Assembly: GCF_905237065.1 (NCBI RefSeq)
Contig: NC_059444.1
Span: 52,006,644 to 52,070,643 of the forward strand
DNA from: Salmo salar
Taxonomy: Eukaryota
Reading direction: 5' to 3'
DNA length: 64,000 bases
The position numbers and the translations under genes are program-made. Below, in pieces: positions 2,701 to 63,214 of the stretch. The stretch's first letter is position 1. Each line of letters starts with the position of its first letter. The notes under the pieces are model-generated. The model was not told the DNA's origin. It was given only the letters and a program-made list of their open reading frames with translations, and made no database searches.

Positions 2701-2769
2701 AAGTGTGTCAAATACGTAAGTTGAAAACACTGTTAAAAGCACTGTGAAACATAACGACTCATGTTCCAA

Positions 2770-16300: not shown

Positions 16301-17269
16301 TAATAGCCCGAGTCACTTTCAGATCAAGCTGGCTAGGGAAAAAAGTCCTTCGTTTTTATAAGACATCAAACTGCAAGTTGTCAAACCATGGGTTTGAATT
16401 ATTAATTTAACTATTTTGAGAATGAACGTAGCTATGCTCAATCAGATAAGACTGTAAAAGTTCCACAAACAGTGGGGTCCGCTAAACAAGTCAGCCTACA
16501 GCGCTTAAATAGGTCTATAGCTCCCTAAACATGTCTGATCTTGGAAATGTTTTAGCACCTGGATAGAAAATACAGAAGCAATCTAATTTGCACAACCTCT
16601 GCAGTTGGGGTCAACCTGAAACGGATAAGCTGTACAATAATGTGTGATAAATTGGATAACACTTTACTGAAGGATAATACACATTTGTCATATGTATAAA
16701 CTGATTATAATATCTCAGTATCATATAATTAGGGCTATAATGCAATAGGCATAATAACCAGTTATCAAGCACGTTGAAATTGAACCTGTTGAAAAATTGC
16801 CATAGAGAAAGAACATTACAACCAACCTTTCTGAACGCGAGAAAAATACAACCCTAAAAAATAAAACACGAGGCAAAACAATAGCTAGTAATTTGAGGCA
16901 GCAGCCCTTAAGTCAACAACCTGACACAATACAATGTAACGTTGCCCTTTGAGCCCCCTCCCCATTGATAAGCGGACAGACACCATACAGGAATATTATC
17001 CAGTGACTATCCATTTATTCATTCACTACTTTACTCTAGTTGTTTTCTTAAGAAATTCAAGTATTTGTTGGGAACACAAGTCAAAGACGTTTCCTAAAAT
17101 ATGGCAAAAAAATAAGACATCAGTTTCATATTCAGAACAATCAAAAACACAAGTTACAGTTTTTTCTCCCGCTTTTCTAAACATCTACATTCCCAGGTGT
17201 AGTCTTCTCTCTCCCGTGCCTATTGATGGCACAAAACGAAGGACAAAGACTTGCTTCCTTTCCTTCAGT

Positions 17270-23297: not shown

Positions 23298-23399
23298 CGG
23301 TTTGTGAGGTCCTCTCAGGATGTGAGCTCTGGCCCCCTCACAGGCAGATGCCATGGCAGAGAGAGGAGGGGTACCCAGCAGGTCAGTGATCAGATCCAA
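23298..23399 (-). CDS. nlk: nlk exon 7
   Basis: Acceptor ccccgcAG|TTGGATC and donor CCG|GTACTA. Encodes LDLITDLLGTPPLSAMASACEGARAHILRGPHKP (34 codons, phase 0). Confidence 0.75.
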
Positions 23400-25184
23400 C
23401 TGCGGGGTAGAGGGAGAGAGTGAGGGTGGGTGGGAGAGAGAGAAGATTTAATTTCACAACACACCTAAATAAATAAAAACCGACCATCCACAAGTGCCAA
23501 AAATTTGATACATTATTTGATTATTAATTGTTAGATAAAAGTAAAAGAAAATTGCCCAGACAGATTACACCTTTAGATGGCTTTCCCTCCTTCCTCCCTC
23601 CCAGGGTTCTATGCCCCCCACCCCTCTACTACGGCTGTGGCGGTCACAAAATGTTGTCAGCCGGTGACTGTCAAGCAAATAACTGTCGGTCTCACGGTAA
23701 TTGACCGTTAATTAACATAAACACATTTAGCATCTCCTGGCTTCCACACAAGCCACTGATGCAGATCTGGAGCATCTACATTTTAAAACGTTTAGAAATC
23801 CATGTAATATAGCCTACACCTTCACAATAAATCAATTATTTATTTTAGACAGGTCTAAAGAAGCATGATATTTTGTCTATTTCAGAAGAATAGAATAGCA
23901 TACTCCGAGTTGTCCTTATGTTAGGTCCTGATCTAGCTATGCCATATGGCTGTGGGCTGCACTAGTTCATTTAGCAGACAAGATTTGCTTAGAATTCCGC
24001 GGCATTATTTTATATTATGAAGAATACAATTGAACAAAGCTGAATAAAATAGAAAGGATATTTTCTCCAAACGATTTGAGGGAGTACCCATACATGCGGC
24101 TATTCTGTGTTGAACGGTTAACAAGGCAATATACTCCTATATGTTTAATTTAGAGTTAAATGTAACTTTAGTTGTTCTACAAACATTGGGCTAAATATTT
24201 AGATTTTTAATACATTGCAAGGCTGCATGATGCAAATAATGATTTGAAAAAAGTTGCTAGAAAAAAGGAATGCGCACCATTGTTTTTTTCCGCAGGCTAC
24301 ACACTTCATCAGTCTCTCATTCACAATTTGACAGGCCCTTAATAATGCCTCAAATTTCACGGCGGCATCCCCTTTGTTTGGCCGTAATACACCCTAAAAA
24401 AATCCATGCCTTTAGCGGTCATTGTGCCCTTGGCCCGGAGTGCTGCGTTGTGCCCTTCTCCCCGAGTGCTACTTGCGCCGATGCACCTCTCACTCACATT
24501 GCTCTCCATCACGTGATCGGGTCTTTCTCACAGGCTACAAGTGAAGACCGACACTTTGGGGACGCAACTGCGCACGTCATTATCCAATTCCGAGGTGCAT
24601 ATTAAAGATATTGGAAGAACTGTCCACATTTACTTTGTCAGCCAATAAGATGAGTAGCCCTAACGAACAACAAAAGCACTAGCCTATGCCAATCTGCTAT
24701 ACCCCCATAGTACAAAACCATTCTATTCGTGCGAGAAATACATAAATAATAATGTTTTACTCAATGTGGCTGACACAACAGATCAGAACATTTAGCCTAA
24801 TAGTTTATCAACATTTTAAGCTATTTCTTCGCACACGGCAGTAGGCTATAAGCGCGAATGTTCCATTAGCGGGAAAACACCATTCTCAAAAGTGACCGCA
24901 AATGCGATTATGCATGTAATGCTTTTATGTATGCCAGTTAGGCTCCATACCCCTTGTAAAATGAATTAATGTGCTTAAATTTAAGAAGTTATTTAGCCAC
25001 TTTAGTTGTGACACAAACCGTATCAAAACATATAGGCCTATGGGCTAAGCTACATGCGGTGTGCGACTATGATTCGAAAAAGTGGCATCATTCACAAGTG
25101 ATAATATATAATTCACAAGTGATAATATTGTCACCCATCAGACTATTCTTAATTAAATCTTGTCTTTACATATATTAAATAATA

Positions 25185-25440
25185 TACAGTACCCGTCAAA
25201 AGTTCGAACACCTACTCATTCAAGAGTTTATTTTTTGCCATTTTCTACATTGTAGAATAATAGTGAAGACATCAAAACTATTAAATAACACACATGGAAT
25301 CATGTAGGAACCAAAAAAAGTGATAGATTTCTTTAAATACATATTTTATATATGAGATACTTCAAAGTAGCCACCCTAGGCCTTGACAGGTTTGCACACT
25401 ACGTATTCTCTCAACCAGCTTCATGAGGTAGTCTTAGCTC
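25185..25440 (-). mobile_element. Tc1-like element, terminal fragment with inverted repeat
   Basis: Starts with the inverted repeat cagtacccgtcaaaagttcgaacacctactcattc, followed by the conserved Tc1 3'-end sequence in reverse complement (ttctacattgtagaataatagtgaagacatcaaaac). Confidence 0.75.
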
Positions 25441-26340
25441 CGGTTTGGAGCGAGCAGTCGCACTACTCTTCGCTCCACAGGTAATATTACACTTCACTAC
25501 ATTACAACAGCTTGATTTGTTTGATCTGAGCAATTCTTCTTAGCTAGCTACATAGCCGTCTTTGTATCAAAGATAATTGTGTAGTTTTAGAGTAATTGAG
25601 TAATTATCGAGGCTAGCTATCTTCGTCCTCCTAACGTAGCAACACTCCTAGCTGCTAGCTAGCTAGTCATCACTCCTAGCTAGCCAACTTCTACCGACTA
25701 GCAGCACTGTAGATACTATTACATTACAACGTAACGACTTGATTAGTGTGGTGTTAGTGTTAGTTAGCCAGCTACATAGTTGTCCTTGCTGTCTCTGTAT
25801 CTAAGATAGTTGTGTAGTTTGAGTAATTATCGAGGTGAGCTAGCCAGCCGCGACGCGGCGCCAGACTTAGTCAACACACCTAGTCATCATTAACCCACTG
25901 CTAGCTAGCCAACCGTTACCGACTAGCAGCGCTGTAGATACTAATACTTTACAACGGAACGATTTGACTAGTGCAGTGTTAGCTAGCTAGCTACTTAGTT
26001 GTCTTTGTCATAGCTTGATAATTGTGTAGTTTAGTAATTACCGAGGTCAGCTAGCCAGCTATTTCCGTCCCCCGCGACGCCATTTTTCCTAACCCAGCCA
26101 ACTATTACCGACGAGCAGCATTGTAGAAACTAAATACATACAAGGAACGTCTTGATTAGTGTTATGTTAGCTAGCTAGCTACAAAGTTGCTTTGTATCAT
26201 GACAAGGTGTAGTACTGAAACTATCGAGGTTACCTAGCCAGCTACACGTTCAAAGTCAACAACGCAGCCACTGCTAGCTAGCCTACTCCACCAGCCAGCA
26301 GTACTGTATCATTTTAGTCAATAAGATTTTTGCAACGTAA
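25440..26340. repeat. Tandem array of about 4 units of roughly 200-235 bp, rich in gctagctagc motifs
   Basis: The repeated unit contains ...gctagctagc...ccaac(t/c)tctaccgactagcagc(a/g)ctgtagatacta(t/a)tac(a/t)ttacaacg(t/g)aacga(c/t)ttga(t/c)tagtg...gttag...agctac(a/t)tagttgtc(c/t)ttg...agtaattatcgaggt(g/c)agctagccagc. Copies start near 25640, 25870, 26060 and 26250. Lies immediately 5' of LINE copy A. Confidence 0.7.
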
Positions 26341-29300
26341 GCTTAACTTTCTGAACATTCGAGACGTGTGGTCCACTTGTCAGTCCAATCTCCTTTGCAT
26401 TAGCGTAGCCTCTTCTGTAGCTTGTCTACTATGTGTCTGTCTATCCCTGTTCTCTCCCCTCTGCTCAGGCCATACAAACGCTCCACACCGCGTGGCCGCT
26501 GCCACTCTAACCTGGTGGTCCCAGCGCGCACGACCCACATGGAGTTCCAGGTCTCCGGCAGCCTCTGGAACTGCCGGTCTGCGGCCAACAAGGCTGAGTT
26601 CATCTCAGCCTATGCTACCCTCCAGTCCCTAGACTTCCTGGCGCTGACGGAAACATGGATTACCACAGATAACACTGCTACTCCTACTGCTCTCTCCTCG
26701 TCTGACTACGTGTTCTCACATACCCCTAGAGCATCGAGCCAGCGGGGTGGTGGCACTGGAATCCTCATCTCTCCCAAGTGGACATTCTCTCTTTCTCCCC
26801 TGACCCATCTGTCTATCTCCTCATTTGAATTCCATGCTGTCACAGTTACCAGCCCTTTCAAGCTTAACATCCTTATCATTTATCGCCCTCCAGGTTCCCT
26901 TGGAGAGTTCATCAATGAGCTTGACGCCTTGATAAGTTCCTTTCCTGAGGATGGCTCACCTCTCACAGTTCTGGGTGACTTTAACCTCCCCACGTCTACC
27001 TTCGACTCATTCCTCTCTGCCTCCTTCTTTCCACTCCTCTCCTCTTTTGACCTCACCCTCTCACCTTCCCCCCTACTCACAAGGCAGGCAATACGCTTGA
27101 CCTCATCTTTACTAGATGCTGTTCTTCCACTAATCTCATTGCAACTCCCCTCCAAGTCTCCGACCACTACCTTGTATCCTTTTCCCTCTCGCTCTCATCC
27201 AACACTTCTCACTCTGCCCCTACTCGGATGGTATTGCGCCGTCCCAACCTTCGCTCTCTCTCTCCCGCTACTCTCTCCTCTTCCATCCTATCATCTCTTC
27301 CCTCTGCTCAAACCTTCTCCAACCTATCTCCTGATTCTGCCTCCTCAACCCTCCTCTCCTCCCTCTCTGCATCCTTTGATTTCCTCTGTCCCCTATCCTC
27401 CAGGCCGGCTCGGTCCTCCCCTCCTGCTCCGTGGCTCGACGACTCACTGCGAGCTCACAGAACAGGGCTCCGGGCAGCCGAGCGGAAATGGAGGAAAACT
27501 CGCCTCCCTGCGGACCTGGCATCCTTTCACTCCCTCCCCTCTACATTTTCCTCTTCTGTCTCTGCTGCTAAAGCCACTTTCTACCACTCTAAACTCCAAG
27601 CATCTGCCTCTAACCCTAGGAAGCTCTTTGCTACCTTCTCCTCCCTCCTGAATCCTCCTCCCCCTCCCCCCTCCTCCCTCTCTGCGGATGACTTCGTCAA
27701 CCATTTTGAAAAGAAGGTTGACGACATCCGATCCTCGTTTGCTAAGTCAAACGACACCGCTGGTCCTGCTCACACTGCCCTACCCTGTGCTTTGACCTCT
27801 TTCTCCCCTCTCTCTCCAGATGAAATCTCGCGTCTTGTGACGGCCGGCCGCCCAACAACCTGCCCACTTGACCCTATCCCCTCCTCTCTTCTCCAGACCA
27901 TTTCCGGAGACCTTCTCCCCTACCTCACCTCGCTCATCAACTCATCCTTGACCGCTGGCTACGTCCCTTCCGTCTTCAAGAGAGCGAGAGTTGCACCCCT
28001 TCTGAAAAAACCTACACTCGATCCCTCCGATGTCAACAACTACAGACCAGTATCCCTTCTTTCCTTTCTCTCCAAAACTCTTGAACGTGCCGTCCTTGGC
28101 CAGCTCTCTTGCCATCTCTCAGAATGACCTTCTTGATCCTAATCAGTCAGGTTTCAAGACTGGGCATTCAACTGAGACTGCTCTTCTCTGTGTCACGGAG
28201 GCTCTCCGCACTGCTAAAGCTAACTCTCTCTCCTCTGCTCTCATCCTTCTAGACCTATCTGCTGCCTTTGATACCGTGAACCATCAGATCCTCCTCTCCA
28301 CCCTCTCCGAGCTGGGCATCTCCGGCGCGGCCCACGCTTGGATTGCGTCCTACCTGACAGGTCGCTCCTACCAGGTGGCGTGGCGAGAATCTGTCTCCGC
28401 ACCACGTGCTCTCACCACTGGTGTCCCCCAGGGCTCTGTTCTAGGCCCACTCCTATTCTCGCTATACACCAAGTCACTTGGCTCTGTCATATCCTCACAT
28501 GGTCTCTCATATCATTGCTATGCAGATGACACACAATTAATCTTCTCCTTTCCCCCTTCTGACAACCAGGTGGCGAATCGCATCTCTGCATGTCTGGCAG
28601 ACATATCAGTGTGGATGACGGATCACCACCTCAAGCTGAACCTCGGCAAGATGGAGCTGCTCTTCCTCCCGGGGAAGGACTGCCCGTTCCATGATCTCGC
28701 CATCACGGTTGACAACTCCCTTGTGTCCTCCTCCCAGAGTGCTAAGAGCCTTGGCGTGACCCTGGACAACACCCTGTCGTTCTCCACTAACATCAAGGCG
28801 GTGACCCGATCCTGTAGGTTCATGCTCTACAACATTCGCAGAGTACGACCCTGCCTCACACAGGAAGCGGCGCAGGTCCTAATCCAGGCACTTGTCATCT
28901 CCCGTCTGGATTACTGCAACTCGTTGTTGGCTGGGCTCCCTGCCTGTGCCATTAAACCCCTACAACTCATCCAGAACGCCGCAGCCCGTCTGGTGTTCAA
29001 CCTTCCCAAGTTCTCTCACGTCACCCCGCTCCTCCGCTCTCTCCACTGGCTTCCAGTCGAAGCTCGCATCCGCTACAAGACCATGGTGCTTGCCTACGGA
29101 GCTGTGAGGGGAACGGCACCTCCGTACCTTCAGGCTCTGATCAGGCCCTACACTCAAACAAGGGCACCGCGTTCATCCACCTCTGGCCTGCTCGCCTCCC
29201 TACCTCTGAGGAAGCACAGTTCCCGCTCAGCCCAGTCAAAACTGTTCGCTGCTCTGGCACCCCAATGGTGGAACAAGCTCCCTCACGACGCCAGGACAGC

Positions 29301-29520
29301 GGAGTCAATCACCACCTTCCGGAGACACCTTAAACCCCACCTCTTTAAGGAATACCTAGGATAGGATAAAGTAATCCTTCTAACCCCGCCCCCCCTTAAA
29401 AGATTTAGATGCACTATTGTAAAGTGGTTGTTCCACTGGATATTATAAGGTGAATGCACCAATTTGTAAGTCGCTCTGGATAAGAGCGTCTGCTAAATGA
29501 CTTAAATGTTAAATGTAAAT
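26340..29520 (+). mobile_element. L2/RSg-1-like LINE, copy A (endonuclease + RT, frameshifted), with 3' tail ...gtaagtcgctctggataagagcgtctgctaaatgac
   Basis: Plus-strand ORFs 26422..27651, 27228..28127 and 28030..29364 in three frames. Endonuclease motifs (SLWNCRSAANKAEFISAYA...ALTETW) and RT motifs (LLDPNQSGFKTGHSTETAL, LLDLSAAFDTVNH, YADDTQL). Roughly 97-98% identical to copy B. Confidence 0.85.
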
Positions 29521-30105
29521 GTACTTTAAGACATGAAGATCAGTCATTCCAGAAAATGTCAAGAACTTTGAAAGTTTCTGCAAGTGCAGTCGCAAAAACT
29601 ATCAAGCGCTATGATGAAACTGGCTCTCATGAGGACCGCCACAGGAATGGAAGACCCAGAGTTACCTCTGCTGCAGAGGATAAGTTCATTAGGAGTTACC
29701 AGCGTCAGAAATTGCAGCCCAAATAAATGCTTCACAGAGTTCAAGTAACAGACACATCTCAACAACTGTTCAGAGGAGACTGCGTGAATCAGGCCTTTAT
29801 GGTCAAATTGCTGCAAAGAAACCACTACTAAAGGACACCAATAAGAAGCATTCCTCATGAAGCTGGTTGAGAGAATACCAAGTGTGCAAAGCTGTCAACA
29901 AGGCAAAGGGTGGCTACTTTGAAGAATATAAAATATATTTTTGATTTGTTTAACACTTTTTGGGTTTCTACATGATTCCATACGTGTTATGTCATAGTTT
30001 TGGTGTCTTATTATTCTACAATGTAGAAAATAGTTAAAAAAATAAATAAAAACCCTGGAATGAGTAAGTGAGTGCAAACTTCTAATTGGTACTGTTTGTA
30101 TCAAA
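29521..30105 (+). mobile_element. Tc1-like element, internally deleted copy; LINE copy A abuts its 5' side
   Basis: Plus-strand transposase N-terminal remnant (...[40 protein letters not shown]), then the conserved 3' end ttctacaatgtagaaaatag...cttctaattggtactg inverted repeat. Confidence 0.7.
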
Positions 30106-30564
30106 ACAGGGGCAGGGGGGAAAATGCATGTCATCTTTGCACTTAAATAGCAAATGGCGGACACTTTTCCCGTGGTTCATTTTCATGCCAACCAACGATA
30201 AGCAATTGGCTTATTATTAGGAAAGTTGAGAAATAAATAATATAGTAGGCCTAGCCTATAGAAAGCGGATGGGATCCTCTTTTTATTAGAGGCCATCAAT
30301 GTTGCGCAACACGAGCTCATGAAGTGTTTGATTAGATTTTCGATTACATTTGCATTGATGTCAGAGTGATTAGAGGGACAATAGAGTGCCGAGTACCAGG
30401 CAGTTAGCAAGTTTGGTAGGCTACTAATGACCATCAGCAGCATCAGAGCTTGGAGAAGCCTAACTACCGTGACCAAACGGTCACATGGAATTCGACTGCC
30501 GTCATGACTTGTGACCGCCGATGTGGCGGTAATACCGTTACCGCAACAGCCCTACCCTCTCTAC

Positions 30565-30774
30565 CTGTTGTATGGGGCTCTGGGCCTGGAACAGGATGCG
30601 TCGACCCAGTAGTTCAGCGAAGATGCAGCCCACCGACCAGACGTCTATGGCAGAGCCATAATGGCGGCTGCCCATCAGCACCTCAGGAGCCCGGTAGTAC
30701 TGAGTCACCACCTCCTGGGTCATGTGACGAGACTGGTCCGGCTCCTCCACACGTGCCAGCCCAAAGTCACAGAT
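30565..30774 (-). CDS. nlk: nlk exon 6 (activation loop, TQY motif, APE)
   Basis: Acceptor gctcAG|ATCTGTGAC and donor CAG|GTAGAG. Encodes ICDFGLARVEEPDQSRHMTQEVVTQYYRAPEVLMGSRHYGSAIDVWSVGCIFAELLGRRILFQAQSPIQQ. Anchored to minus ORF 30538..30750. Confidence 0.9.
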
Positions 30775-30856
30775 CTGAGCGAGAGAGAGGGGGCGGGAAG
30801 GAGAGAGAGAAAGAGGTGAGTGGAAGAGGGGGAAATTTAGTTACATCCACGGAGTA

Positions 30857-32880
30857 TACAAAACATTAAGAACACCTGCTCTTTCCATGACAGACTGCCC
30901 AGGTGAAAACTACCTTTGATGTCACTTGTTAAATCCACTTCAAATCCGTGTAGATGAAGGAGAAGATTTTTAAGCCTTGAAACATGGATTGTGTATGTGA
31001 GAGACTAGTCAAGGACCATATCACCTCCACCCTACCTGACACCCTAGACCCACTCCAATTTGCTTACCACCACAATAGGTCCACAGACGACGCAATCGCC
31101 ATCACACTGCACACTGCCCTAACCCATCTGGACAAGAGGAATACCTATGTAAGAATGCTGTTCATCGATTACAGCTCAGCATTTAACACCATAGTACCCT
31201 CCAAACTCGTCATTAAGCTCGAGAACCTGGGTCTCGACCCCGCCCTTTGCAACTGGGTCCTGGACTTCCTGACAGGCCGCCCCCAGGTGGTGAGGGTAGG
31301 TAACAGCATCTCCACCCCGCTGATCCTCAACACTGGGTCCCCACAAGGGTGCGTTCTCAGCCCTCTCCTGTACTCCCTGTTCACTCATGACTGCGTGGCC
31401 ATGCACGCCTCCAACTCAATCATCAAGTTTGCAGATGACACTACAGTGCTAGGCTTGATTACCAACAACGACGAGATGGCCTACAGGGAGGAGGTGAGGG
31501 CCCTCGGAGTGTGGTGTCAGGAAAATAACCTCTCACTCAATGTCAACAAAACAAAGGAGATGATCGTGGACTTCAGGAAACAGCAGAGGGATCAGCCCCC
31601 TATCCAGATCGACGGGACAGTATTGGAGAAGGTGGAGAGTTTTAAGTTCCTCGGCGTACACATCACAGACAAACTGAAATGGTCCACCCACACAGACAGC
31701 GCGGTGAAGAAGGCGCAGCAGCGCCTCTTCAACCTCAGAAGGCTGAAGAAATTCGGCTTGTCACCAAAAACACTCAAACTTTTACAGATGCACAATCGAG
31801 AGCATCCTGTCGGGCTGTATCACCGCCTGGTACGGCAGCTGCTCCGCCCATAACCGGAAGACTCTCCAGAGGGTAGTGAGGTCTGCACAACACATCACCG
31901 GGTGCAAACTACCTGCCCTCCAGGACACCTACACCACCCGATGTCACAGGAAGGCCAAAAAGATCATCAAGGACAACAACCACCCGAGCCACGGCCTGTT
32001 CACCCCGCTACCATACAGAAGGCGAGGTCAGTACAAGTGCATCAAAGCGGGGACCGAGAGACTGAAAAACAGCTTCTATCTCAAGGCCATCAGACTGTTA
32101 AACAGCCATCACTAACATTGAGTGGCTGCTGCCAACATACTGACTCAACTCCACCCACTTTAATAATGGTAAAATTGATGTAATCAATTTATCACTAGTC
32201 ACTTTATATTATATAATGTTCTCATACCCTACATTGCTCATCTCATATGTATATACTGTACTCTATACCATCTACTGCATCTTGCCTATGCCGTTTGGCC
32301 ATCACTCATTTATATATTTTTATGTACATATTCATATTCATTCCTTTACACTTGTGTGTACAAGGTAGTTGTTGTGAAATTGTTAGGTTATATTACTTGT
32401 TAGATATTACTGCATGGTCGGAACTAGAAACACAAGCATTTCGCTACACTTGCATTAACACCTGCTAACCATGTGTATGTGACAAATAAATTTGATATTT
32501 TGATTTGTGCCATTCAGAGGCTGAATAAATGGGCAAGACAAACTATTTAAGTGCCTTTGAACAAGGTATGGTAGTAGGTGCCAGGTGCAACAGTTTCAGT
32601 GTGTCAAGAACTGCAAAGGTGCTGGGTTTTTCACACTCAACAGTTTCCCATGTGTGTCAAGAATGGTCGACCATCCTAAGGACATCCAGCCAACGAGACA
32701 ACTGTGGGAAGCATTGGAGTCAACAAGGGCCAGCATCGCTGTGGAATGCATTCAACACCTTGTAGAGTGCATGCCCTGATGAACTGAGGCTGTTTTGAGG
32801 GCAAAAGGTGTGGGGGGCAACTCAATATTAGGAAGGTGTTTGTAATGTTTGGTGTACCCAGTGTAGGTTGACCACTGTAA
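30857..32880 (+). mobile_element. Nested insertion: Tc1-derived repeat (30857-30983 and 32470-32880) split by a 5'-truncated LINE RT fragment (30984-32470)
   Basis: The two flanks are the left and right halves of the same repeat as 2130-2700. The insert encodes plus-strand RT ORF 30984..31853 ([13 protein letters not shown]...FADDTTV) and C-terminal ORF 31876..32115 (KLPALQDTYTTRCHRKAKKII), then a 3' UTR. Lies in nlk intron 5. Confidence 0.8.
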
Positions 32881-32944
32881 TTACAGCATAATACACTTGT
32901 ATGTTTGTCAAAAGGTGTATAGATTATATTCTTCAGTCCAGTCA

Positions 32945-33106
<162 letters not shown>

Positions 33107-33285
33107 TCATAACGGTCCAAATATAGCCCCTTGCCAATTCCCCTTCAGTGTTTGCAGTCAATGTCAACATGAATCCATCAATATGGCTCCATCACATGAA
33201 ACAAGCTGGCTCCTTTAAACCTGCAAACCAAGAAAGGCTGGGGGGGGGGACTCACAAATGGGTTGTTTTTGGGGCTCAGGAGTTA

Positions 33286-33498
<213 letters not shown>

Positions 33499-33795
33499 TT
33501 ATAGGATGTGGCCGGAGCACATAGAAGAAAGATGGATTATTAAGCTATCTATAGTAAAGTTAAAAATGTAGTTATCTATCATAACAAAAGACTATCCCTA
33601 ATGGTATCATCTCGGTTGAGGTTTATCTTGATGTATAATGTATTATGTTGATTCAGACTGTTTTGAAAGGAGGAGGACATGATAATATATAGACAGAGAA
33701 ACTGGGACAGAGAAAGTGCACAAGTGAATAATGGCTGACACATAAGTCATGTGTGCAAGTGTGTGTGCGCACGTGAATGTGCATGTGAAGGATAC

Positions 33796-33851
33796 ATTTC
33801 CTCGAAGCAGTCGATCTGCGGAGGCTGCAGAATGTCCAGCGCTGACAACAC
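33796..33851 (-). CDS. nlk: nlk exon 3
   Basis: Acceptor gtttacAG|GTGTTG and donor AT|GTATCC. Encodes VLSALDILQPPQIDCFEE(I). Confidence 0.75.
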
Positions 33852-34326
33852 CTGTAAACACACATCATCATCATCATCATCACCCTTCTCGTTGTTTTAA
33901 TGATTAGAGCTCTAAAAGACAAAACAGACAGGCGAACGGTTAAAAGCAGTGAGTGGCCATCCTATCGTTGGCCGTCATTTCGTGTTCATTTTCTGATGAT
34001 TGTACACGTTGAAATCGCCACCGTTTTGTCAACACTCAGCAAGTGATCTAGCGTTCACAGCCGACATTTGATAAGGCACTTCTCGTCCTTAAGTGGCTAA
34101 ACTATAACAAACCTCTACCTTCACAGTGCTATTTGTAGAGCTAGCCTCTGTATGGAAACATATCAATGAGCAGTGTCTTATGCCTCTATTATGGATGCAA
34201 TACTGTATGAAAATGTCTCAAAATGGCACCTTACTCCAGAGTGTAGGAAATAGGGTGCCATTTAGGACGCAGCCTGTGTGTGCGTTGCGCAGTCCTGTGT
34301 ATAGATGCATCGCTGTCCATTCTTAC

Positions 34327-34456
34327 GTTGTCGTGTTTGAAGAAGCAGAGCATCCTCAGCTCTCTGAAGACCCTCTTACAGGAGACTAGGTTCTGGAAGA
34401 CATTGGGCATCTTCTTCAGGGCTACCTTACGCCCGTCACGAGGGTCTGTCACTGAC
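34327..34456 (-). CDS. nlk: nlk exon 2
   Basis: Acceptor ctgcAG|GTCAGTGAC and donor AAC|GTAAGA. Encodes SVTDPRDGRKVALKKMPNVFQNLVSCKRVFRELRMLCFFKHDN. Confidence 0.85.
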
Positions 34457-34636
34457 CTGCAGGGGCAAGACGGAGGGGTCTGTTATCACTGGTCACCAAT
34501 GGGGAGGGCACGTGCACACACAGTATGTCCATCTCATTCCCTTGTTAGATACACACCCTTTTTTGGAAAGGAAAAAAAAATGCAAAAACTCACATGGAAA
34601 TCAGTCTTCATTCTTATTTGAAATGGCACAACTTAC

Positions 34637-34950
34637 CAGACTACACCAAATGCGCCATAACCGATAGGTCGATCAGGCTCCATCTCAGCGGGGCTTGGCA
34701 CTTCACTGGCAGGACTACTGTGATGCTGTGGTACAGCGGCCCCGCCCCCGGTGCTTCCCCCAAGAGACGTAGGGTGTCGAGGCGTCCCCGCCGGGGCAGT
34801 GGGTCCAGTTAGGCTCGGTGTTGCACTGAGGCCCGTGGAAGTGGATCCAGTTGAGGTGTTGGCGCAAAAATACTTGTTATGCCCCAACTCAGATCCGGGG
34901 AACAGGTTACCACATACTGTCTGCTGCAGGCCTGTACCATGGAATGCCAT
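34637..34950 (-). CDS. nlk: Nemo-like kinase, first coding exon (ATG at 34948-34950)
   Basis: Minus ORF 34633..34950 ends ...EMEPDRPIGYGAFGVVW, the start of the NLK kinase domain. There is an in-frame stop just 5' of the ATG. Donor TG|GTAAGT. Confidence 0.8.
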
Positions 34951-37096
34951 TCTATTTCAAACTTCTATCAGAAGGGTTCGTTTGGGAGCTATGTCTAATA
35001 CTGTACTCGCTTTGAGCGTTGCATGCATCACAAATACATGAACCGAGAGCTTGACTTCAGTATTCTATGCAGGCATGATTATGACTCTGTTCCTTGCTTG
35101 TAGAACATGCAACAGAGAATGTAAACCATGTCTGATATGGTTAGCAGCTATCTTTTTAGCTATATAATAACAGGAGCAGTGTTATTTAGCTTGCTATTAG
35201 ACTATTGTCGTGGAATCACCATTATTGGCTTTAGTGAGGTAGGTAATGTTAGGTCACGACAGAAAACCAAAAGTATAACGTCAGCAGTGTGATCGAAAAC
35301 ACTGTCGGGTCCAGAAATTCCTGAGCTATATCGACACAAACGCTATGTAATTGGCCAGAGATCACATAATCAATCAGTCTGGCTGGGGAAAGCAATGCCT
35401 ATCACTGTTAATACATTTGTGCTTTCTGTTTTGTGGCCTAATTTTACGATGAGTAAGAAGTCTCCCCTTATCTAGCAATGCTATGTTACATTAACTGGCT
35501 ACCAGCTCGCGCTACATTAGTTTCTTGCCCGGGCTCAGATAGCTACCTTTGTCTGGTTGATGTTAACGAGCTAGCTAAACCGAAAAGTACACACACCGGT
35601 GTTTGCATATAGTTAGCGGAGTAATTCCACTAGCTTATTATATAGCGAACCAGTTGCAGAGGTAGCTAAATAAAAAAGGTAGCAAACGCCCGGTTCTTCC
35701 AGCTCGAGATGTCGGTCAATGAAATTCAGATTCGTAGAACGTTAGCTAGCTGGCATTAGCCCGAATGCTAACCAGCTGTTCCATGGCCCAGATAGACAGC
35801 CGGGTATTTAGCTAGCAGACTGTCGTGACCTATATATTTGCTTTGACCAAAAACACTTTCAGTAGACGAAACGAAATGAAAGAAAAATCAACCAGCGTAA
35901 TTCGCAGCGCGAGGAAGTCCTCTTTTGATTTCACACAACGAAAGTCAGTTTTGCATCACTAACGTTAGCTGAATAACGTTAGCCGGGGTTGCTAGCTAGC
36001 TAAGTTGCTAACAAGCTAGCCCTATCATACCCAATGATAAAAATGAAAAGTGCCAAGAGAGATTAAACCAGCAACTGTGTGATATATTTCATCGCTCTTC
36101 TCTATATCATCTGCTAACCATGTCTTCCGAATGATCCCTTTCTTTCTTGGAAATCAGCTGTTTGAAATAGTGGAATAGTGAGTAGGAGGAGTTGGGGGGT
36201 GGATAGCAAAGGACAGGAGAAAAGGTGGGGGAGGGTTAGACCACTGGTGTAAACAATGCCATGGACAATAGATCAACGGTTCATAGAATCTCTATTCAGA
36301 TTATCATAACTACATCTATATAGAGACAACAACAAAAAAAATGTTAAATAAGATTTACATTTTTCTCCAGAGAAATAATCATTTTCTATTCTACTGCATC
36401 TCTGATATCAGATGCTGTACATGTTCACAGATAAAGTGCATATAGGTTATACATACTACTGCTTTAATACAGTGACATTAACAGAGGAGATTCTAAATCA
36501 ACAGAAGAACAGTCTAGAATGCAATCTCACAAAAACGTGTCACAAAAGTACAAATACTTTTCAGACCAATTCAACTTTGAGAGAATTAAAAATCAGAGCA
36601 TCCAGAATAATAACAACAAGATCATAGGAAGCAAAGAAAGACGAGCATTCAGTAGCCAAATATACAGACAAATAAATACCCATTTGATGCTATCTGTCTA
36701 TAAGTGATAGGGTAAAGTTACATGGTGATGACATGTTTCTGTTGAAAAGGCAACAGTCCTTTCTTGCGAATACTGTTCATCTTAAAAAGCAAAAAGCCAA
36801 TGTAGGACCACAGCTCAAACTACGTCTGGGTGATCATATACTGTATAATCAATATTTCCAAAGAAAATAAATAGTGATGCATTTGTAAAATCCCAAACAT
36901 CGTTATGGGAGTTTGGGTTCTATGTGAATGGAAAAGTGGCATATTGAACCGGAAAACGTTCTCTTTCGTTCAGTAGAATTTCATTTAAAAAAAAGGGGAT
37001 TCCACGATCTCTCCTTTCCTCTTCTCTCTCGTGTCCACCAATGGCAGTTGATAAAGTGACTGTTGCGTAAACAACAGCAACATCTTAAATAGGATC

Positions 37097-37330
37097 GAAT
37101 ACAAAGGGCTCCCAAGTGGCGCAGCGGTCTAAGACACTGCATCTCAGTCCTACTGACCCTGGTTTGATTCCAGGCTGTATCACAACCAGCTGTGATTGGG
37201 AGTTCCATAGGGCGGCCCACAATTGGCCCAGTGTTGCCTGGGTTAGGGTTTGGTCGGGGTAGGCCGTCATTGTAAAATAAGATTTTGTTCTTAACTGACT
37301 TGCCTAGTAAAATAAAGGTAAAAAAAGAAA
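37097..37330 (+). mobile_element. tRNA-derived SINE (salmonid HpaI/SmaI-type)
   Basis: tRNA-like head gggctcccaagtggcgcagcggtctaagacactgcatctcagt...ggtttgattcc, then the conserved tail ggccgtcattgtaaaataagattttgttcttaactgacttgcctagtaaaataaaggtaaaaaaa. Confidence 0.8.
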
Positions 37331-37572
37331 TGGGGCCCTGGGGGGTGAATGCCCCTATATGCTGATCCGGGGCCAGTATTTAACTTTCCCCATTAATGGT
37401 TAGGATTGGGGGAGGGGAAACTGATCCTACAGTACATCTGTACTTAGGATAAATTTCACCCCGAGCCACATCCACTCCTCTTTCAAGCTGTCCTGACTGC
37501 AGTCTCCACGGCATCCATTTACCTCCATCCCCTCTCCCCCTTCCCCCTCCCTCTCTCCAATGGGCCTGGCTG

Positions 37573-37904
37573 CTAGCTGAGAGGCTGGGGGGCGATGCTG
37601 GAGCAGTCAGTGACCAGCAGGCCCACGGTTGAGCTGCCTGACAGAGACACGGCCACAGCCATGGTACCGGTCCCCGCGGGGCTACTGCTGGGGCTGGGGG
37701 CGCCCTGGACCTGGGTGACGGCGTGGGTGCCCATGTGGCCCTGGAGCTGGGTGGGTGTCTTGCACTGCACCCCACACAGTTGGCACAGCAGCACCCCGCC
37801 AGCACCGGCCCCGCCGAACATGCCCCGCGTCCCGCCGCTCTCCTTCCACTCCTGGCCGTGATGTTTCTGAGCGTGGACACGCAGATAGGTGAGGGTGGTG
37901 AAGC
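37573..37904 (-). CDS. maz: MAZ-like last coding exon (stop TAG at 37573-37575)
   Basis: Acceptor ctccAG|GCTTCACC. Encodes (S)FTTLTYLRVHAQKHHG...LLCQLCGVQCKTPTQLQGHMGTHA...SIAPQPLS then stop. The last finger matches the MAZ C-terminus. Confidence 0.8.
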
Positions 37905-38114
37905 CTGGAGGGAGATGAGAGGGAGAGGGAGGAAGAGAGAGGGAGGGAGAGCATTGAGAAATAAGAAAAGGCGAGGAACAAAAGATGAGGAACAAAAGAG
38001 AAGGACATATGAGAGATGAGAAATGAGAGAGGGATAACTGTGTAACCACCTCCGTTACACAGGTATTCTCCTCTCCTTTCACAAATTTAAAAAAGAACAT
38101 GGAAGTCCACTCAC

Positions 38115-38286
38115 TGCGGTTGCACAGGTGGCAGGCGTGGTGCTGTGATTGGTTGTGGACCCTCATATGATCGGTGATGTAGGCGGCAGAGAGGAGCTTG
38201 CCACAGATGTGGCACGGCACCTTCTCCTCGTGGCGAATCAGGTGGGCACGGAGACGGTCCCGAGTGGCGAAGGCAGACGTGCAGGT
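38115..38286 (-). CDS. maz: MAZ-like exon with C2H2 fingers 5-6
   Basis: Acceptor tacacAG|ACC and donor A|GTGAGTGG. Encodes TCTSAFATRDRLRAHLIRHEEKVPCHICGKLLSAAYITDHMRVHNQSQHHACHLCNR. Anchored to minus ORF 37573..38325. Confidence 0.85.
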
Positions 38287-38889
38287 CTGTGTAGCACACA
38301 CGCCCGCACACACACACAAAACCATTGTTCAATCTTGGACATTTTGACAATTTTCTTCGCCATTATATTTTAGAAGCTAGGCAGGTCAATGTCATTAAAT
38401 TGCCTATAAAAAAATTCATACAGTGTACACAGAGAAGCAAGGAACATATGACAGGAAACAAGTTTGAAAATAGGGAGAAAGAACAAGGCAAGAGTTAAAA
38501 TGTTGTCCCCCACGAATGATGCAGTTTCGTGCAGATCGGTTATTCAGTGCCAGAGGAGTAGCAGCAGCAGCAGCTGAAAAATGAGCTCCTACAAATATTG
38601 AAATTTACATGGTTTTTAGAGTGAAGTACATCGGAAAAAAGCAAAAGAAAACTGCAAGACTGAATAGGAGAAAAAACAAGCAACAAACAAAGACGATAGG
38701 CTTTTGAAAAATAACTATTTTTCATAAAATTGTAGTTATCTTAGCAAGCTGAATTGTTTACCAGTTGCTAAGCAGTTGCTAGGGACTCTTTTGGAAGAAG
38801 CTAGCTAGCTAACGAAGAACAACAAAGAATATCTAGTTAACAGAAGAAAAGAAAGAGAAAATCAGGACAGAAGAAAAAGGATATCAAAG

Positions 38890-41830
38890 TGAAACAGTTC
38901 TCTAAAGACACAGGAGACAATAATACAAGAAACAACACTTCTGTAGCTTGTCAACTATGTGTCTGTCTATCCCTGTTCTCTCCTCTCTGCACAGGCCATA
39001 CAAACGCTTCACACCGCGTGGCCGCTGCCACTCTAACCTGGTGGTCCCAGCGCACACGACCCACGTGGAGTTCCAGGTCTCCGGCAGCCTCTGAAACTGC
39101 CGGTCTGCAGCCAACAAGGCTGAGTTCATCTCAGCCTATGCTACCCTCCAGTCCCTAGACTTCCTGGCGCTGACGGAAACATGGATTACCACAGATAACA
39201 CTGCTACTCCTACTGCTCTCTCTTCGTCTGCCCACGTGTTCTCGCATACCCCTAGAGCATCGAGCCAGCGGGGTGGTGGCACTGGAATCCTCATCTCTCC
39301 CAAGTGGACATTCTCTCTTTCTCCCCTGACCCATCTGTCTATCTCCTCATTTGAATTCCATGCTGTCACAGTTACCAGCCCTTTCAAGCTTAACATCCTT
39401 ATCATTTATCGCCCTCCAGGTTCCCTTGGAGAGTTCATCAATGAGCTTGACGCCTTGATAAGTTCCTTTCCTGAGGATGGCTCACCTCTCACAGTTCTGG
39501 GTGACTTTAACCTCCCCACGTCTACCTTTGACTCATTCCTCTCTGCCTCCTTCTTTCCACTCCTCTCCTCTTTTGACCTCACCCTCTCACCTTCCCCCCC
39601 TACTCACAAGGCAGGCAATACGCTTGACCTCATCTTTACTAGATGCTGTTCTTCCACTTATCTCATTGCAACTCCCCTCCAAATCTCCGACCACTACCTT
39701 GTATCCTTTTCCCTCTTGCTCTCATCCAACACTTCTCACTCTGCCCCTACTCGGATGGTATTGCGCCGTCCCAACCTTCGCTCTCTCTCTCCCGCTACTC
39801 TCTCCTCTTCCATCCTATCATCTCTTCCCTCTGCTCAAACCTTCTCCAACCTATCTCCTGATTCTGCCTCCTGAACCCTCCTCTCCTCCCTTTCTCCTCC
39901 AAGCATCTGCCTCTAACCCTAGGAAGCTCTTTGCTACCTTCTCCTCCCTCCTGAATCCTCCTCCCCCTCCCCCCCCCTCCTCCCTCTCTGCGGATGACTT
40001 CGTCAACCATTTTGAAAAGAAGGTTGACGATATCCGATCCTCGTTTGCTAAGTCAAACGACACCGCTGGTCCTGCTCACACTGCCCTACCCTGTGCTTTG
40101 ACCTCTTTCTCCCCTCTCTCTCCAGATGAAATCTCGCGTCTTGTGACGGCCGGCCGCCCAACAACCTGCCCACTTGACCCTATCCCCTCCTCTCTTCTCC
40201 AGACCATTTCCGGAGACCTTCTCCCCTTCCTCACCTCGCTCATCAACTCATCCTTGACCGCTGGCTATGTCCCTTCCGTCTTCAAGAGAGCGAGAGTTGC
40301 ACCCCTTCTGAAAAAACCTACACTCGATCCCTCCGATGTCAACAACTACAGACCAGTATCCCTTCTTTCTTTTCTCTCCAAAACTCTTGAACGTGCCGTC
40401 CTTGGCCAGCTCTCCTGCTATCTCTCTCAGAATTACCTTCTTGATCCTAATCAGTCAGGTTTCAAGACTGGGCATTCAACTGAGACTGCTCTTCTCTGTG
40501 TCACGGAGGCTCTCTGCACTGCTAAAGCTAACTCTCTCTCCTCTGCTCTCATCCTTCTAGACCTATCTGCTGCCTTTGATACTGTGAACCATCAGATCCT
40601 CCTCTCCACCCTCTCCGAGTTGGGCATCTCCGGCGTGGCCCACGCTTGGATTGCGTCCTACCTGACAGGTCGCTCCTACCAGGTGGCGTGGCGAGAATCT
40701 GTCTCCGCACCATGCGCTCTCACCACTGGTGTCCCCCAGGGCTCTGTTCTAGGCCCTCTCCTATTCTCGCTATACACCAAGTCACTTGGCTCTGTCATAT
40801 CCTCACATGGGCTCTCCTATCATTGCTATGCAGACGACACACAATTAATCTTCTCCTTTCCCCCTTCTGATAACCAGGCGGCGAATCACATCTCTGCATG
40901 TCTGTCAGACATATCAGTGAGGATGACGGATCACCAGCTCAAGCTGAACCTCGGCAAGACGGAGCTGCTCTTCCTCCCGGGGAAGGACTGCCCGTTCCAT
41001 GATCTCGCCATCACGGTTGACAACTCCCTTGTGTCCTCCTCCCAGAGTGCTAAGAACCTTGGCGTGATCCTGGACAACACCCTGTCGTTCTCCACTAACA
41101 TCAAGGCGGTGACCCGATCCTGTAGGTTCATGCTCTACAACATTCGCAGAGTACGACCCTGCCTCACACAGGAAGCGGCGCAGGTCCTAATCCAGGCACT
41201 TGTCATCTCCCGTCTGGATTACTCCAACTCGCTGTTGGCTGGGCTCCCTGCCTGTGCCATTAAACCCCTACAACTCATCCAGAACGCCGCAGCCCGTCTG
41301 GTGTTCAACCTTCCCAAGTTCTCTCACGTCACCCCGCTCCTCCGCTCTCTCCACTGGCTTCCAGTTGAAACTCGCATCCGCTACAAGACCATGGTGATTG
41401 CCTACGGAGCTGTGAAGGGAACGGCACCTCCATACCTTCAGGCTCTGATCAGGCCCTACACCCAAACAAGGGCACTGCGTTCATCCACCACTGGCCTGCT
41501 GGCCCCCCTACCTCTGAGGAAGCACAGTTCCCGCTCAGCCCAGTCAAAACTGTTCGCTGCTCTGGCACCCCAATGGTGGAACAAGCTCCCTCACGACGCC
41601 AGGACAGCGGAGTCAATCACCACCTTCCGGAGACACCTGAAACCCCACCTCTTTAAGGAATACCTAGGATAGGATAAAGTAATCCTTCTAACCCCCCCCT
41701 TAAAAGATTTAGATGCACTATTGTAAAGTGGTTGTTCCACTGGATATCATAAGGTGAATGCACCATTTTGTAAGTCGCTCTGGATAAGAGCGTCTGCTAA
41801 ATGACTTAAATGTAATGTAATGTAATGAGT
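38890..41830 (+). mobile_element. L2/RSg-1-like LINE, copy B (5'-truncated; 731-aa RT ORF intact; about 220 bp shorter than copy A)
   Basis: Plus-strand ORFs 39236..39874 (endonuclease part) and 39477..41672 (RT through to the C-terminus ...HLFKEYLG), with the same 3' tail as copy A. Antisense within a maz intron. Confidence 0.85.
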
Positions 41831-42130
41831 AGTGTTTTTCACAAAATTCAAAATAGCGTAAAATCCATCATGACGGACCTTATGCGTCCCTGAGTAAAAT
41901 GTGTTCCTTGTGAGCCGGGACCTATGTACCGAATGTAATGACTTTAGGTCAAACGGGTTGAGGGGCATGACCTTTCAAAGTTAGCATTTTAATCGCTTGT
42001 TATAGCGCCACCATCTGGCCAATCATTGCAATTTTGTAAACAGCTGATCTTTATGGCGAGACCCATCTGAGATATCGCAAGTGACTTATTAACTGTGACA
42101 AATGGATCGAGACAGATTCATTGCGGGGGG
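41826..42130. repeat. Unclassified interspersed repeat (second copy at 59522-59850)
   Basis: The two stretches align at about 80% identity over roughly 300 bp (...ttttcacaaaat(t/c)caaaat(a/g)gcg(t/g)aaaatccatc(a/t)tgacgga...gcttgttatagcgccaccatctggccaat...). Confidence 0.6.
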
Positions 42131-42201: not shown

Positions 42202-42265
42202 CGGGCACTTGAAGGGTCTCTCAGTGGAGTGCACCTGTCTGACGTGACTGTTGAGGTGGTCGGGT
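42202..42265 (-). CDS. maz: MAZ-like exon
   Basis: Acceptor tgttccAG|ACCC and donor CCG|GTAATC. Encodes (R)PDHLNSHVRQVHSTERPFKCP, matching MAZ RPDHLNSHVRQVHSTERPFKC. Confidence 0.8.
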
Positions 42266-42427
42266 CTGGAACAGACAGGAGAAAGGATTAAGACCCCACG
42301 TGTGTCTTATCTGTGTCTTATCGGTAATTTCTCGTCGATAGATCTACCCTTGCACAACAGACGTCAGTTAGAACTGAATTCTATTAGAACTCCAGACTAA
42401 TTTCACAAATGTGTGCATGTACATATA

Positions 42428-43905: not shown

Positions 43906-43972
43906 GTTTGTGCATGTGTGTATACTTGTTACACAATTGAACCCCCCACAACCCAGTCATCCCCCTTCTCAC

Positions 43973-62989: not shown

Positions 62990-63140
62990 AGTTAAAAGCG
63001 TTGGGCCAGTAACTGGTTCGAATCCCCGAACTGATTAGGTGAAAAATCTGTTGCTGTGCCCTTGAGCAAGACACTTAATCCTAATTGCTCATGTAAGTCG
63101 CTCTGGATAAGAGCGTCTCCTAAATGACTAAAATGTAAAT
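62990..63140 (+). mobile_element. SINE 3' portion in a cdipt intron
   Basis: ...gggccagtaactggttcgaatccccgaactgatta...gctcatgtaagtcgctctggataagagcgtctcctaaatgactaaaatgtaaatgt. Confidence 0.7.
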
Positions 63141-63214
63141 GTGAAAGGACATTTTTTTGGGTGGTGTGTGTATGACCATGTTGGTGTGTGTGTGTGTATG
63201 ACTGTATTTCTTAC

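Follow-up and report, generated by a model that had tools for sequence, protein, structure and literature searches.

Two decayed copies of a UnaL2/SalL2-type LINE in introns of neighbouring Salmo salar genes very probably arose as independent insertions

Near-identical repeats lying close together in neighbouring genes raise the question of whether they arrived separately or arrived once and were copied afterwards, and a long open reading frame (ORF) surviving in one of them raises the further question of whether it is a gene. We address both for a 64,000-nt stretch of the Salmo salar genome (NC_059444.1, positions 52,006,644 to 52,070,643; hereafter the window, numbered from its first letter), in which an earlier note, made from the letters alone, had described two near-identical L2-like LINE copies, antisense within introns, and had taken their likeness as a sign of recent retrotransposition.

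Repeat searching and blastn recovered two direct copies on the + strand, A (26412-29523) and B (38938-41824), sharing ~2.9 kb and lying near the positions at which the pair had been described. The gapped global alignment that the earlier note had proposed gave 97.9% identity over aligned columns (2821 matches, 60 mismatches), i.e., not below the ~95% that it had named as telling against its reading, and contained one large indel together with several of 1-4 nt. The large indel, a 224-bp segment of A that B lacks (27369-27592), confirms the ~220 bp reported missing from B at A 27360-27600, while the supposed near base-for-base match including the 3′ tails holds for the shared sequence but not for the terminal microsatellites, which are TAAATG-type in A and (TAATG)3 in B. 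The extents first given (26340-29520 and 38890-41830) are about right for B, but A starts at ~25439, as judged from six full-length copies of the element in Arctic charr (S. alpinus) with which A is colinear from a common 5′ end (TCCGG...) through the tail. Because the 5′ flanks of these copies match the sequence upstream of 26412 in A, A reaches 25439 and B, which is without the first 973 bp of the element, is the shorter of the two; 26412/38938 was accordingly rejected as the true 5′ end of the family, that common start being an artefact of a query that began there.

The anatomy of both copies is that of a LINE (Table 1). Neither LTRs nor ITRs were found at the element ends, and among the eight copies compared (A, B, and the six from Arctic charr) the 5′ ends vary while the 3′ end is common to all. 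Both copies and the intact charr ORF gave Pfam matches to Exo_endo_phos/Exo_endo_phos_2 and RVT_1, as in APE-type LINEs; in A, Exo_endo_phos falls in the ORF at 26422-27651 and RVT_1 in that at 28030-29364. Over 26221-29522, A is 95.5% identical to the six charr copies, and its 5′UTR, in which TRF reports a period of 188 at 25907-26244, is homologous to their two 209-bp monomers at 76-79% identity. Upstream of the ATG of A we found no ORF1, nor any ORF of at least 100 aa except an out-of-frame overlap. Against the charr consensus, the ORF of A carries two frameshifts (-1 nt after 27067, -2 nt after 28114), an in-frame loss of 3 nt after 27665, and no nonsense substitutions, and restoring its missing bases from B yields a single open frame of 985 codons. 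B is disabled in other ways: it is without a 5′UTR, and its endonuclease frame carries a stop codon at W46 and is ended by the frameshifting 224-bp deletion. Both copies are incapable of autonomous retrotransposition.

Table 1. Features of the two LINE copies, their insertion sites, and the flanking host exons (window coordinates)
Feature	Position	Strand	Details and basis
nlk1 coding exon 7, downstream of A in gene orientation	23298..23402	-	tblastn, fish NLK1/NLK2 proteins
Tc1-like transposon, left part	25182..25438		Insertion target of A
LINE copy A, full-length, L2-clade (UnaL2/SalL2-type)	25439..29523	+	4,085 bp; nested in Tc1-like transposon, nlk1 intron 6
Copy A 5′UTR	25439..26430	+	~3 tandem monomers of ~190-225 bp at 25513-26244; direct-repeat families
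Copy A single ORF, disrupted	26431..29364	+	Ancestrally 979 codons (endonuclease + RT); lesions mapped against charr consensus
224-bp EN-RT linker segment	27369..27592	+	In A and all charr copies, deleted in B; global and multiple alignment
Copy A UnaL2-type 3′ stem-loop, GGAUA loop	29453..29506	+	Rfam RF00436, 73.3 bits; hairpin recovered by ViennaRNA
Copy A terminal short tandem repeats	29507..29523	+	TAAATG-type; direct sequence reading
Tc1-like transposon, right part	29524..30100		Insertion target of A
nlk1 coding exon 6, upstream of A in gene orientation	30553..30783	-	tblastn, fish NLK1/NLK2 proteins
maz-like zinc-finger exon downstream of B	38092..38289	-	tblastn; Pfam zf-C2H2
Purine-rich 375 bp joined to 5′ end of B	38563..38937	+	Missing together with B from empty sites
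LINE copy B, without canonical 5′UTR	38938..41824	+	2,887 bp; starts 19 nt before ATG 38957; in maz-like intron
Copy B nonsense mutation, codon 46 (W46 stop)	39092..39094	+	TGG to TGA, endonuclease frame
Copy B 731-aa ORF	39477..41672	+	Pfam RVT_1 whole at aa 281-531 (40317-41069)
Copy B UnaL2-type 3′ stem-loop	41757..41810	+	Rfam RF00436, 73.2 bits; all consensus pairs standard; folding
Copy B terminal repeats, (TAATG)n = (TGTAA)n	41811..41824	+	(TAATG)3
maz-like zinc-finger exon upstream of B	42205..42270	-	tblastn, 22/22 residues identical to human MAZ

Several lines of evidence bear on the family to which this element belongs. Both 3′ ends match the Rfam model of the UnaL2 LINE 3′ element above its gathering cut-off of 55 bits and, together with the endonuclease and RT domains of the ORF, bear out the L2-like label of the earlier note. 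The tails consist of short repeats instead of poly(A), with TAAATG units in A and (TAAATG)2-3 in the charr copies. LINE protein homologues number in the hundreds among salmonids at 89-99% identity; identity falls to 53-66% for the L2-like ORFs of other teleosts and is 61% for an Anguilla protein. The nearest named relatives are uncharacterised teleost proteins, and a single relative of the A/B sub-lineage (P0026) was found. As judged from the 3′ RNA element, tail repeats, and homologues, A and B are classed as UnaL2/SalL2-type L2 LINEs, and the family is most probably SalL2 or a subfamily of it. According to PMC3747384 and PMC2653535, SalL2 of salmon belongs to the L2 clade, groups with UnaL2, and has a tail in common with the SmaI/FokI SINEs. 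An RSg-1/HpaI-type tail was considered and rejected, as Rfam and a literature table (PMC3747384) both give the UnaL2/SalL2 (SmaI/FokI) type. A tRNA-derived SINE at ~63000-63146 in the window shares the UnaL2-type tail (52.8 bits), which accords with membership of SalL2. ARAGORN detected no tRNA genes within the 64-kb window.

Among described systems, UnaL2 of the eel Anguilla japonica (L2 clade) resembles A and B in being a single-ORF LINE with endonuclease and RT, in a 3′ stem-loop whose loop reads GGAUA and which matches the Rfam model built on UnaL2, and in its short terminal repeats, which are (TGTAA)n in B and part of a tail also borne by the SINE in the same window. It differs in that the best eel protein relative is only ~61% identical and in that the tail unit here is mostly TAAATG, not TGTAA; the comparison covers the protein, hairpin, and tail, the 5′UTRs of A and the charr copies being built of ~200-bp tandem monomers. 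The retrotransposition mechanism was worked out for UnaL2 (PMC1636434); the present copies are dead. SalL2, the partner of the SmaI/FokI SINEs (Ohshima & Okada 2005, as reported in PMC3747384 and PMC2653535), shares the salmonid host as well and, by the description given there, the L2-clade affiliation with UnaL2 and the UnaL2-like tail common to tRNA-derived SINEs. The cyprinid L2 elements HAmoL2, CR1-2_DR, and ZfL2-2 likewise combine TAAATG repeats at the terminus with a hairpin of the GGAUA kind (PMC2653535), but belong to other host lineages and are more distant in sequence (cyprinid proteins are 50-58% identical). Mouse L1 offers a parallel in its 5′UTR of tandem monomers, which vary in number between copies and evolve faster than the ORF, though it belongs to an unrelated clade and has two ORFs, a poly(A) tail, and relaxed 3′ recognition. 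The element and its mechanism are of an already described kind, with nothing unusual for a salmonid genome.

The insertion sites bear on the origin of the two copies. As had been noted, both are intronic and antisense to their hosts: the intron holding A separates coding exons 6 and 7 of nlk, and that holding B separates a pair of maz-like zinc-finger exons. Among intronic LINEs, such a bias towards antisense copies commonly results from survivorship. The concatenated nlk exons retrieved nemo-like kinase type 1 / NLK2, while exon 1 alone retrieved short unnamed ORFs only; the name maz is provisional and was taken from the tblastn match to human MAZ, and a PDB search with the zinc-finger exons gave generic C2H2 matches and no MAZ entry. 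Neither A nor B, nor any other copy of the LINE, was found in either of two related loci, the colinear orthologous locus of chinook (L007, 91.4% identical) and a paralogous locus of Arctic charr (L008, 86.6% identical). The target sequence of A, GTAGTCATTACTTTAA, is unbroken in chinook, and the empty site of B is contiguous in both loci. A loss of ~1 kb of target upon insertion of A was rejected, since the 1,023 bp that chinook has there belong to another insertion, which is flanked by TTAA and lies 4 bp from the site. No clean target-site duplication was found at A, while B has a tentative one in a GAGTAG direct repeat that brackets the whole block of leader and LINE (38563-41833). The flanks of A and B, which the earlier note had described as different, proved unrelated in blastn except for Tc1-like fragments in other orientations.

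Hence, A and B are very probably independent, lineage-specific insertions of one salmonid L2-clade (UnaL2/SalL2) subfamily, made by target-primed reverse transcription (TPRT) and since decayed, and the separate retrotransposition events proposed from the start find support in the absence of both copies from the chinook and charr loci. The ancestral element, as reconstructed from the copies, would have measured ~3.9-4.1 kb, with a 5′UTR of ~200-bp tandem monomers, one ORF of ~979 codons for a protein with APE-type endonuclease and reverse transcriptase, and a 3′UTR ending in a GGAUA-loop hairpin followed by TAAATG/TGTAA repeats. In UnaL2, the protein of the element recognises the hairpin, and the terminal repeats are where reverse transcription begins, accompanied by slippage of the template (PMC1636434); by analogy with the eel element, the same recognition and slippage may have operated here. 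On this account, A was copied in full length into the Tc1-like transposon that occupies part of nlk1 intron 6 and acquired its two frameshifts later, and B entered the maz-like intron without the canonical 5′UTR but with 375 bp of foreign sequence attached, and subsequently gained its stop codon and frameshifting deletion.

A different view of the 5′ end of B is that the copy is complete rather than 5′-truncated and represents a sub-lineage in which the 375-bp leader replaced the monomeric 5′UTR. L1 families swap 5′UTRs repeatedly, and here the junction lies 19 nt upstream of the ATG, neither the leader nor B is present at the two empty sites, the GAGTAG repeat flanks the combined block, and the 5′UTRs of the family evolve fast (76-79% identity, versus 95.5% elsewhere in the element). 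However, searches of the LINE, the window, and loci L001-L008 gave no significant match for the leader, no second copy carrying it was found in the sequences compared, A and all six charr copies have the monomeric 5′UTR, and TPRT is known to leave additional or chimeric sequence at the 5′ junctions of LINEs. We regard such a sub-lineage as unlikely.

Substitution patterns bear on the age of the copies and on whether B could descend from A. With the charr consensus as outgroup, 2,880 sites contained 76 changes common to A and B, 29 private to A, and 33 private to B. The common changes (49 synonymous, 23 non-synonymous) depart from neutrality (P = 6e-11) and thus arose in an active lineage, whereas those private to B look neutral (9 synonymous, 22 non-synonymous; 11/9/11 over codon positions). 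Those private to A include 15 synonymous and 11 non-synonymous changes, where neutrality would predict 0.30 (P = 0.004), an excess indicating that part of the A-B difference is older than the insertion and that the two had slightly different masters. Each copy is ~1% from the A/B common ancestor sequence, which, given this excess, is an upper bound on change since insertion for A. A and B are hence young, yet not brand new, and the recency claimed for them stands in relative terms only, as both have diverged and are dead. That B might be a direct daughter of A, i.e., that full-length A was transcribed and its RNA reinserted nearby, would suit the intact length and 5′UTR of A and the subfamily membership of B, with which A shares the 76 diagnostic sites. 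Yet the synonymous enrichment among the changes private to A points to a master lineage distinct from the source of B rather than to decay of A after the birth of B, and the family is abundant, with many other potential sources; direct descent is very improbable.

The 731-aa ORF of B invites the suggestion that it is maintained, either as a functional or domesticated RT-only protein or as an expressed antisense intronic product. The description of an uninterrupted 2.2-kb ORF over the RT domain is correct in that a frame at 39477-41672 contains RVT_1 whole, but its codons 1-140 (39477-39896) are low-complexity nonsense read in the +1 frame relative to ATG 38957, over the 3′ part of the endonuclease, and represent no LINE protein. 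Codons 141-731 (39897-41669), 591 uninterrupted codons of genuine linker, RT, and C-terminal region, are what could speak for maintenance. The ORF does stay open across the deletion (junction at 39895/39896), as had been claimed, but merely through a frame switch, because 224 bp, not being a multiple of 3, joins another frame to that of the RT. Further, B is without a canonical 5′UTR or promoter, its private substitutions are those of an apparently neutral sequence, the RT frame is kept open in 57% of neutral simulations, and absence of the insertion from related loci leaves no conservation to be seen. An exact-sequence look-up of the 731-aa protein found no record. Maintenance is thus highly improbable; the long ORF came about by accident, when an out-of-frame stretch became fused to an RT frame that is still open, and should not be named a gene in annotation.

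Finally, duplication of a single insertion, by segmental duplication or gene conversion, might be suggested by two copies of such high identity that share their orientation and are separated by only 12.5 kb, but is for practical purposes already refuted, as the similarity ends exactly at the element ends, A reaches further 5′ than B, the tail repeats differ, the flanks are unrelated, and A and B correspond to distinct empty sites at the chinook locus, with the charr locus lacking both.

Salmonid genomes normally contain decayed LINE copies lying antisense in introns, and independent insertion of A and B matters little in itself, although the two are clean presence/absence markers for the lineage carrying them. 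At least six full-length copies in Arctic charr (L001-L006), 99.8-99.9% identical, each have an intact 979-codon ORF, the monomeric 5′UTR, and the 3′ recognition element, i.e., the features of an autonomous copy, and are candidate active L2 elements. Literature searches on monomeric 5′UTRs in L2 elements and on recent salmonid L2 activity returned nothing useful. Tentatively, and at somewhat less than even chances, this L2 lineage may still retrotranspose in salmonids, with the fast-evolving 5′UTR, whose ~200-bp monomers vary in number, possibly a modular promoter like that of mouse L1, and copy B with its leader a possible record of 5′UTR replacement or of a template-switch chimera; if so, the lineage would include a vertebrate L2 that is naturally active, has a monomeric promoter, and is tractable for study. 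In current charr annotations, the LINE is mis-modelled as 914-aa spliced proteins, with RT fused to host genes.

Copies A and B, two L2-like LINE copies lying in introns of nlk and a maz-like gene, respectively, are direct copies on the + strand by repeat detection and blastn, and gapped global alignment placed them at 97.9% identity (2821 matches, 60 mismatches), a length and level of match that cannot be due to chance. The earlier note's description of two near-identical copies, with about 220 bp missing from B, was thus borne out, as the alignment contained a single large indel of 224 bp present in A only. Among the smaller differences, B has three short insertions that A lacks, one of 3 nt, one of 1 nt opposite A 27068, and one of 2 nt opposite A 28115; the 3'UTR of A has 4 nt more than that of B, and the terminal repeats differ slightly. 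Coordinates are collected in the table.

Features of the window and related loci
Feature	Coordinates	Strand	Remarks
Copy A, full length	25439-29523	+	4,085 bp
Copy A, 5'UTR monomers	25513-26244		about three, ~190-225 bp
Copy A, block shared with B	26412-29523	+	
Segment in A only	27369-27592		224 bp
Tc1-like copy hosting A	25182-25438, 29524-30100		spans 25182-30100
Leader joined to B	38563-38937	+	375 bp, purine-rich
Copy B, block shared with A	38938-41824	+	
Leader plus LINE B	38563-41833		GAGTAG direct repeat on both sides
Copy B, element's own ATG	38957	+	
Copy B, nonsense codon	39092		codon 46, TGG to TGA
Copy B, 731-aa ORF	39477-41672		
Other LINE fragment	30985-32508	+	ORF 30984-31853
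Tc1-like copy beside B	42420-43911		129-nt terminal inverted repeats
SINE	63000-63146	+	
nlk coding region	34950 (ATG) to 19704	-	11 coding exons
nlk coding exons 6 and 7	30783-30553, 23402-23298	-	flank A
Zinc-finger exons	42270-42205, 38289-38092	-	flank B
Three-gene block	~19700-44800	-	
Charr elements (L001-L006)	about 1687-5600		~3.9 kb
Charr 5'UTR monomers (L001)	1840-2253		two, 209 bp, tandem
Chinook-only insert (L007)	15788-16810		1,023 bp, TTAA-flanked

The description of the copies as L2-like was also upheld, both by their 3' ends and by their coding domains. Each 3' end matched Rfam RF00436, 'UnaL2 LINE 3' element' (73.3 and 73.2 bits; gathering score 55), with all consensus pairs standard and the GGAUA loop present, and Pfam placed endonuclease (EN, Exo_endo_phos) and reverse transcriptase (RT) domains in separate frames in both copies. 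With the B-only bases restored, A reads as one open frame of 985 codons that begins where the shared block begins and ends at the stop codon, so EN and RT shared one ORF in the ancestor. Searching proteins with this reconstructed ORF returned hundreds of salmonid proteins, mainly from Salvelinus alpinus (Arctic charr), at 89-99% identity, a Salmo trutta protein at 96%, other teleost L2-like ORFs at 50-66%, and an Anguilla protein at 61%. SalL2, an L2-clade LINE of salmon, clusters with UnaL2 of eel and is the source of the tail found on the SmaI and FokI SINEs (PMC3747384 Table 1; PMC2653535). Retrotransposition of UnaL2 needs both the GGAUA-loop hairpin, whose loop is the recognition site of the element's protein, and terminal (UGUAA)n repeats, on which reverse transcription begins with template slippage (PMC1636434). 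The present element shows all of these features, and on them and its homologues we take it to be very probably a UnaL2/SalL2-type L2 LINE, a known family behaving in a known way.

A SINE near the end of the window combines, as judged by eye, tRNA-like (box-B-like) and CORE-like sequence with a UnaL2-type hairpin and TAAATG repeats at its 3' end, the same as in the LINE. It scored 52.8 bits against RF00436, slightly under the cut-off of 55, with one mismatch in the 36-nt core; ARAGORN called no tRNA gene there. It is likely a non-autonomous partner of this LINE family. Separately, one match of 990 aa (P0027), 65% identical to the LINE ORF, bears the name 'MAG: reverse transcriptase family protein [Cyanobacteria bacterium J06582_2]'; it comes from a 3.5-kb contig, and contamination of a metagenome bin by fish DNA is the probable explanation.

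In Arctic charr, six loci (L001-L006; GCA_054100595.1) carry full-length copies that are 99.8-99.9% identical pairwise. All encode one identical annotated protein, and all six retain an intact 979-codon ORF (EN aa 46-246, RT aa 529-779) behind a 5'UTR of ~790 nt, suggesting that the family is active in this species now or was so very recently. Sequence upstream of 26412 in A is homologous to the charr 5'UTR back to a common 5' terminus, TCCGG; copy A is therefore full-length, and the boundaries first drawn for it were wrong. Identity between A and the charr copies was only 76-79% in the monomer region versus 95.5% over the rest of the element, and the monomers diverge much faster than the remainder. 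Copy B begins 19 nt upstream of its ATG, without any of the monomeric 5'UTR. GenBank annotates the six charr copies with one and the same 914-aa 'spliced' product, whose model leaves out the catalytic RT core, and further charr models (RefSeq XP and GenBank; P0067, P0071-P0076) join the LINE RT to host genes, among them ADP-dependent glucokinase X1, CoA synthase, and GDP-fucose O-fucosyltransferase 2; such fusions are either exonisation or annotation artefacts.

The nlk exons were located by tblastn, the queries being fish NLK proteins and a human NLK sequence, and the gene is nemo-like kinase type 1 / NLK2. The gene around B we take to be MAZ-like from tblastn with human MAZ, to which the two flanking zinc-finger exons were 100% (22 aa) and 62% (66 aa) identical and a further exon upstream 84% (74 aa). 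Both LINEs are, as had been claimed, intronic and antisense to these minus-strand genes; antisense bias of intronic LINEs is the expected survivorship pattern. NLK database proteins retrieved two related loci, one in chinook salmon (L007), colinear with the window at 91.4% identity, and one in Arctic charr (L008). The latter is about equally distant from the window (86.6%) and from the chinook locus (85.7%) and so is probably a salmonid whole-genome-duplication paralogue. Gene order is alike in both (zf-C2H2 gene, nlk, TLC-domain gene), conserving the window's order of maz-like zinc-finger gene, nlk1, and TRAM/LAG1/CLN8-domain gene.

These loci, together with the unrelated flanks of A and B (blastn), sustain the view that no segmental duplication was involved, as neither contains a copy of the LINE or an RF00436 match anywhere. 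At the site of B, the leader and the LINE are missing together from both loci, where the flanks are directly joined, and ~8 bp of target appear to have been lost. Copy A lies inside an internally deleted Tc1-like transposon copy that is also present in chinook, where the target GTAGTCATTACTTTAA is unbroken at the point of insertion. An unrelated chinook-only insert lies 4 bp from that point, so one Tc1 copy took two independent insertions within a few bases of each other. Another Tc1-like copy adjoins B in the maz-like intron. Antisense in nlk intron 5 is a different LINE fragment (RVT_1 and PF09004), whose protein is only 29% identical to the L2 ORF; it is absent from the chinook locus, and a 93.7%-identical copy occurs elsewhere in the charr L008 locus.

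Both copies are dead. Relative to the charr consensus, the frame of A is broken twice, by loss of 1 nt after 27067 and of 2 nt after 28114, and a further 3 nt are deleted in frame, with no nonsense codon in its ORF, while B has a nonsense codon, a further stop in the EN frame immediately ahead of the deletion junction, and the 224-bp deletion itself, which is not a multiple of 3. The 731-aa ORF singled out in B does exist and includes a complete Pfam RVT_1 domain, but the meaning given to it was wrong. Its ATG is offset by +1 from the frame of the element's own ATG, its first 140 codons are Pro/Ser/Leu-rich nonsense over the 3' part of the EN region, and it stays open across the deletion only because the deletion joins this +1 frame to the genuine RT frame for the final 591 codons. 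In those 1,773 nt, B carries 22 private substitutions, and 57% of 20,000 simulations with 22 random substitutions each kept the frame open, so its openness is no evidence of function.

Changes at 2,880 comparable sites were sorted by taking the charr consensus as outgroup (neutral synonymous fraction, 0.30): 76 were common to both copies, 29 were found in A alone, and 33 in B alone. The common changes (49 synonymous, 23 non-synonymous; codon positions 21/4/47; P = 6e-11) arose in a functional master lineage. Those private to B (9 synonymous, 22 non-synonymous) are neutral and thus reflect post-insertion decay. Among those private to A (15 synonymous, 11 non-synonymous; P = 0.004), part are older than its insertion; A and B thus stem from masters that differed slightly, and the 1% may overstate the age of A. 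Private divergence (1.0-1.15%), set against half (~4.3%) of the 8.6% window-chinook divergence, leads us to infer that both insertions date from about the most recent quarter of the period after the split, an age that is probably an upper limit given the GC- and CpG-rich sequence of the LINE. The proposed recent retrotransposition therefore holds insofar as the insertions are relatively young and independent, but each copy bears ~1% private change and neither is alive.

The leader fused to the 5' end of B had no significant match in the LINE, the window, or L001-L008; it may represent a chimera made by template switching, a different 5'UTR, or an insertion in its own right.
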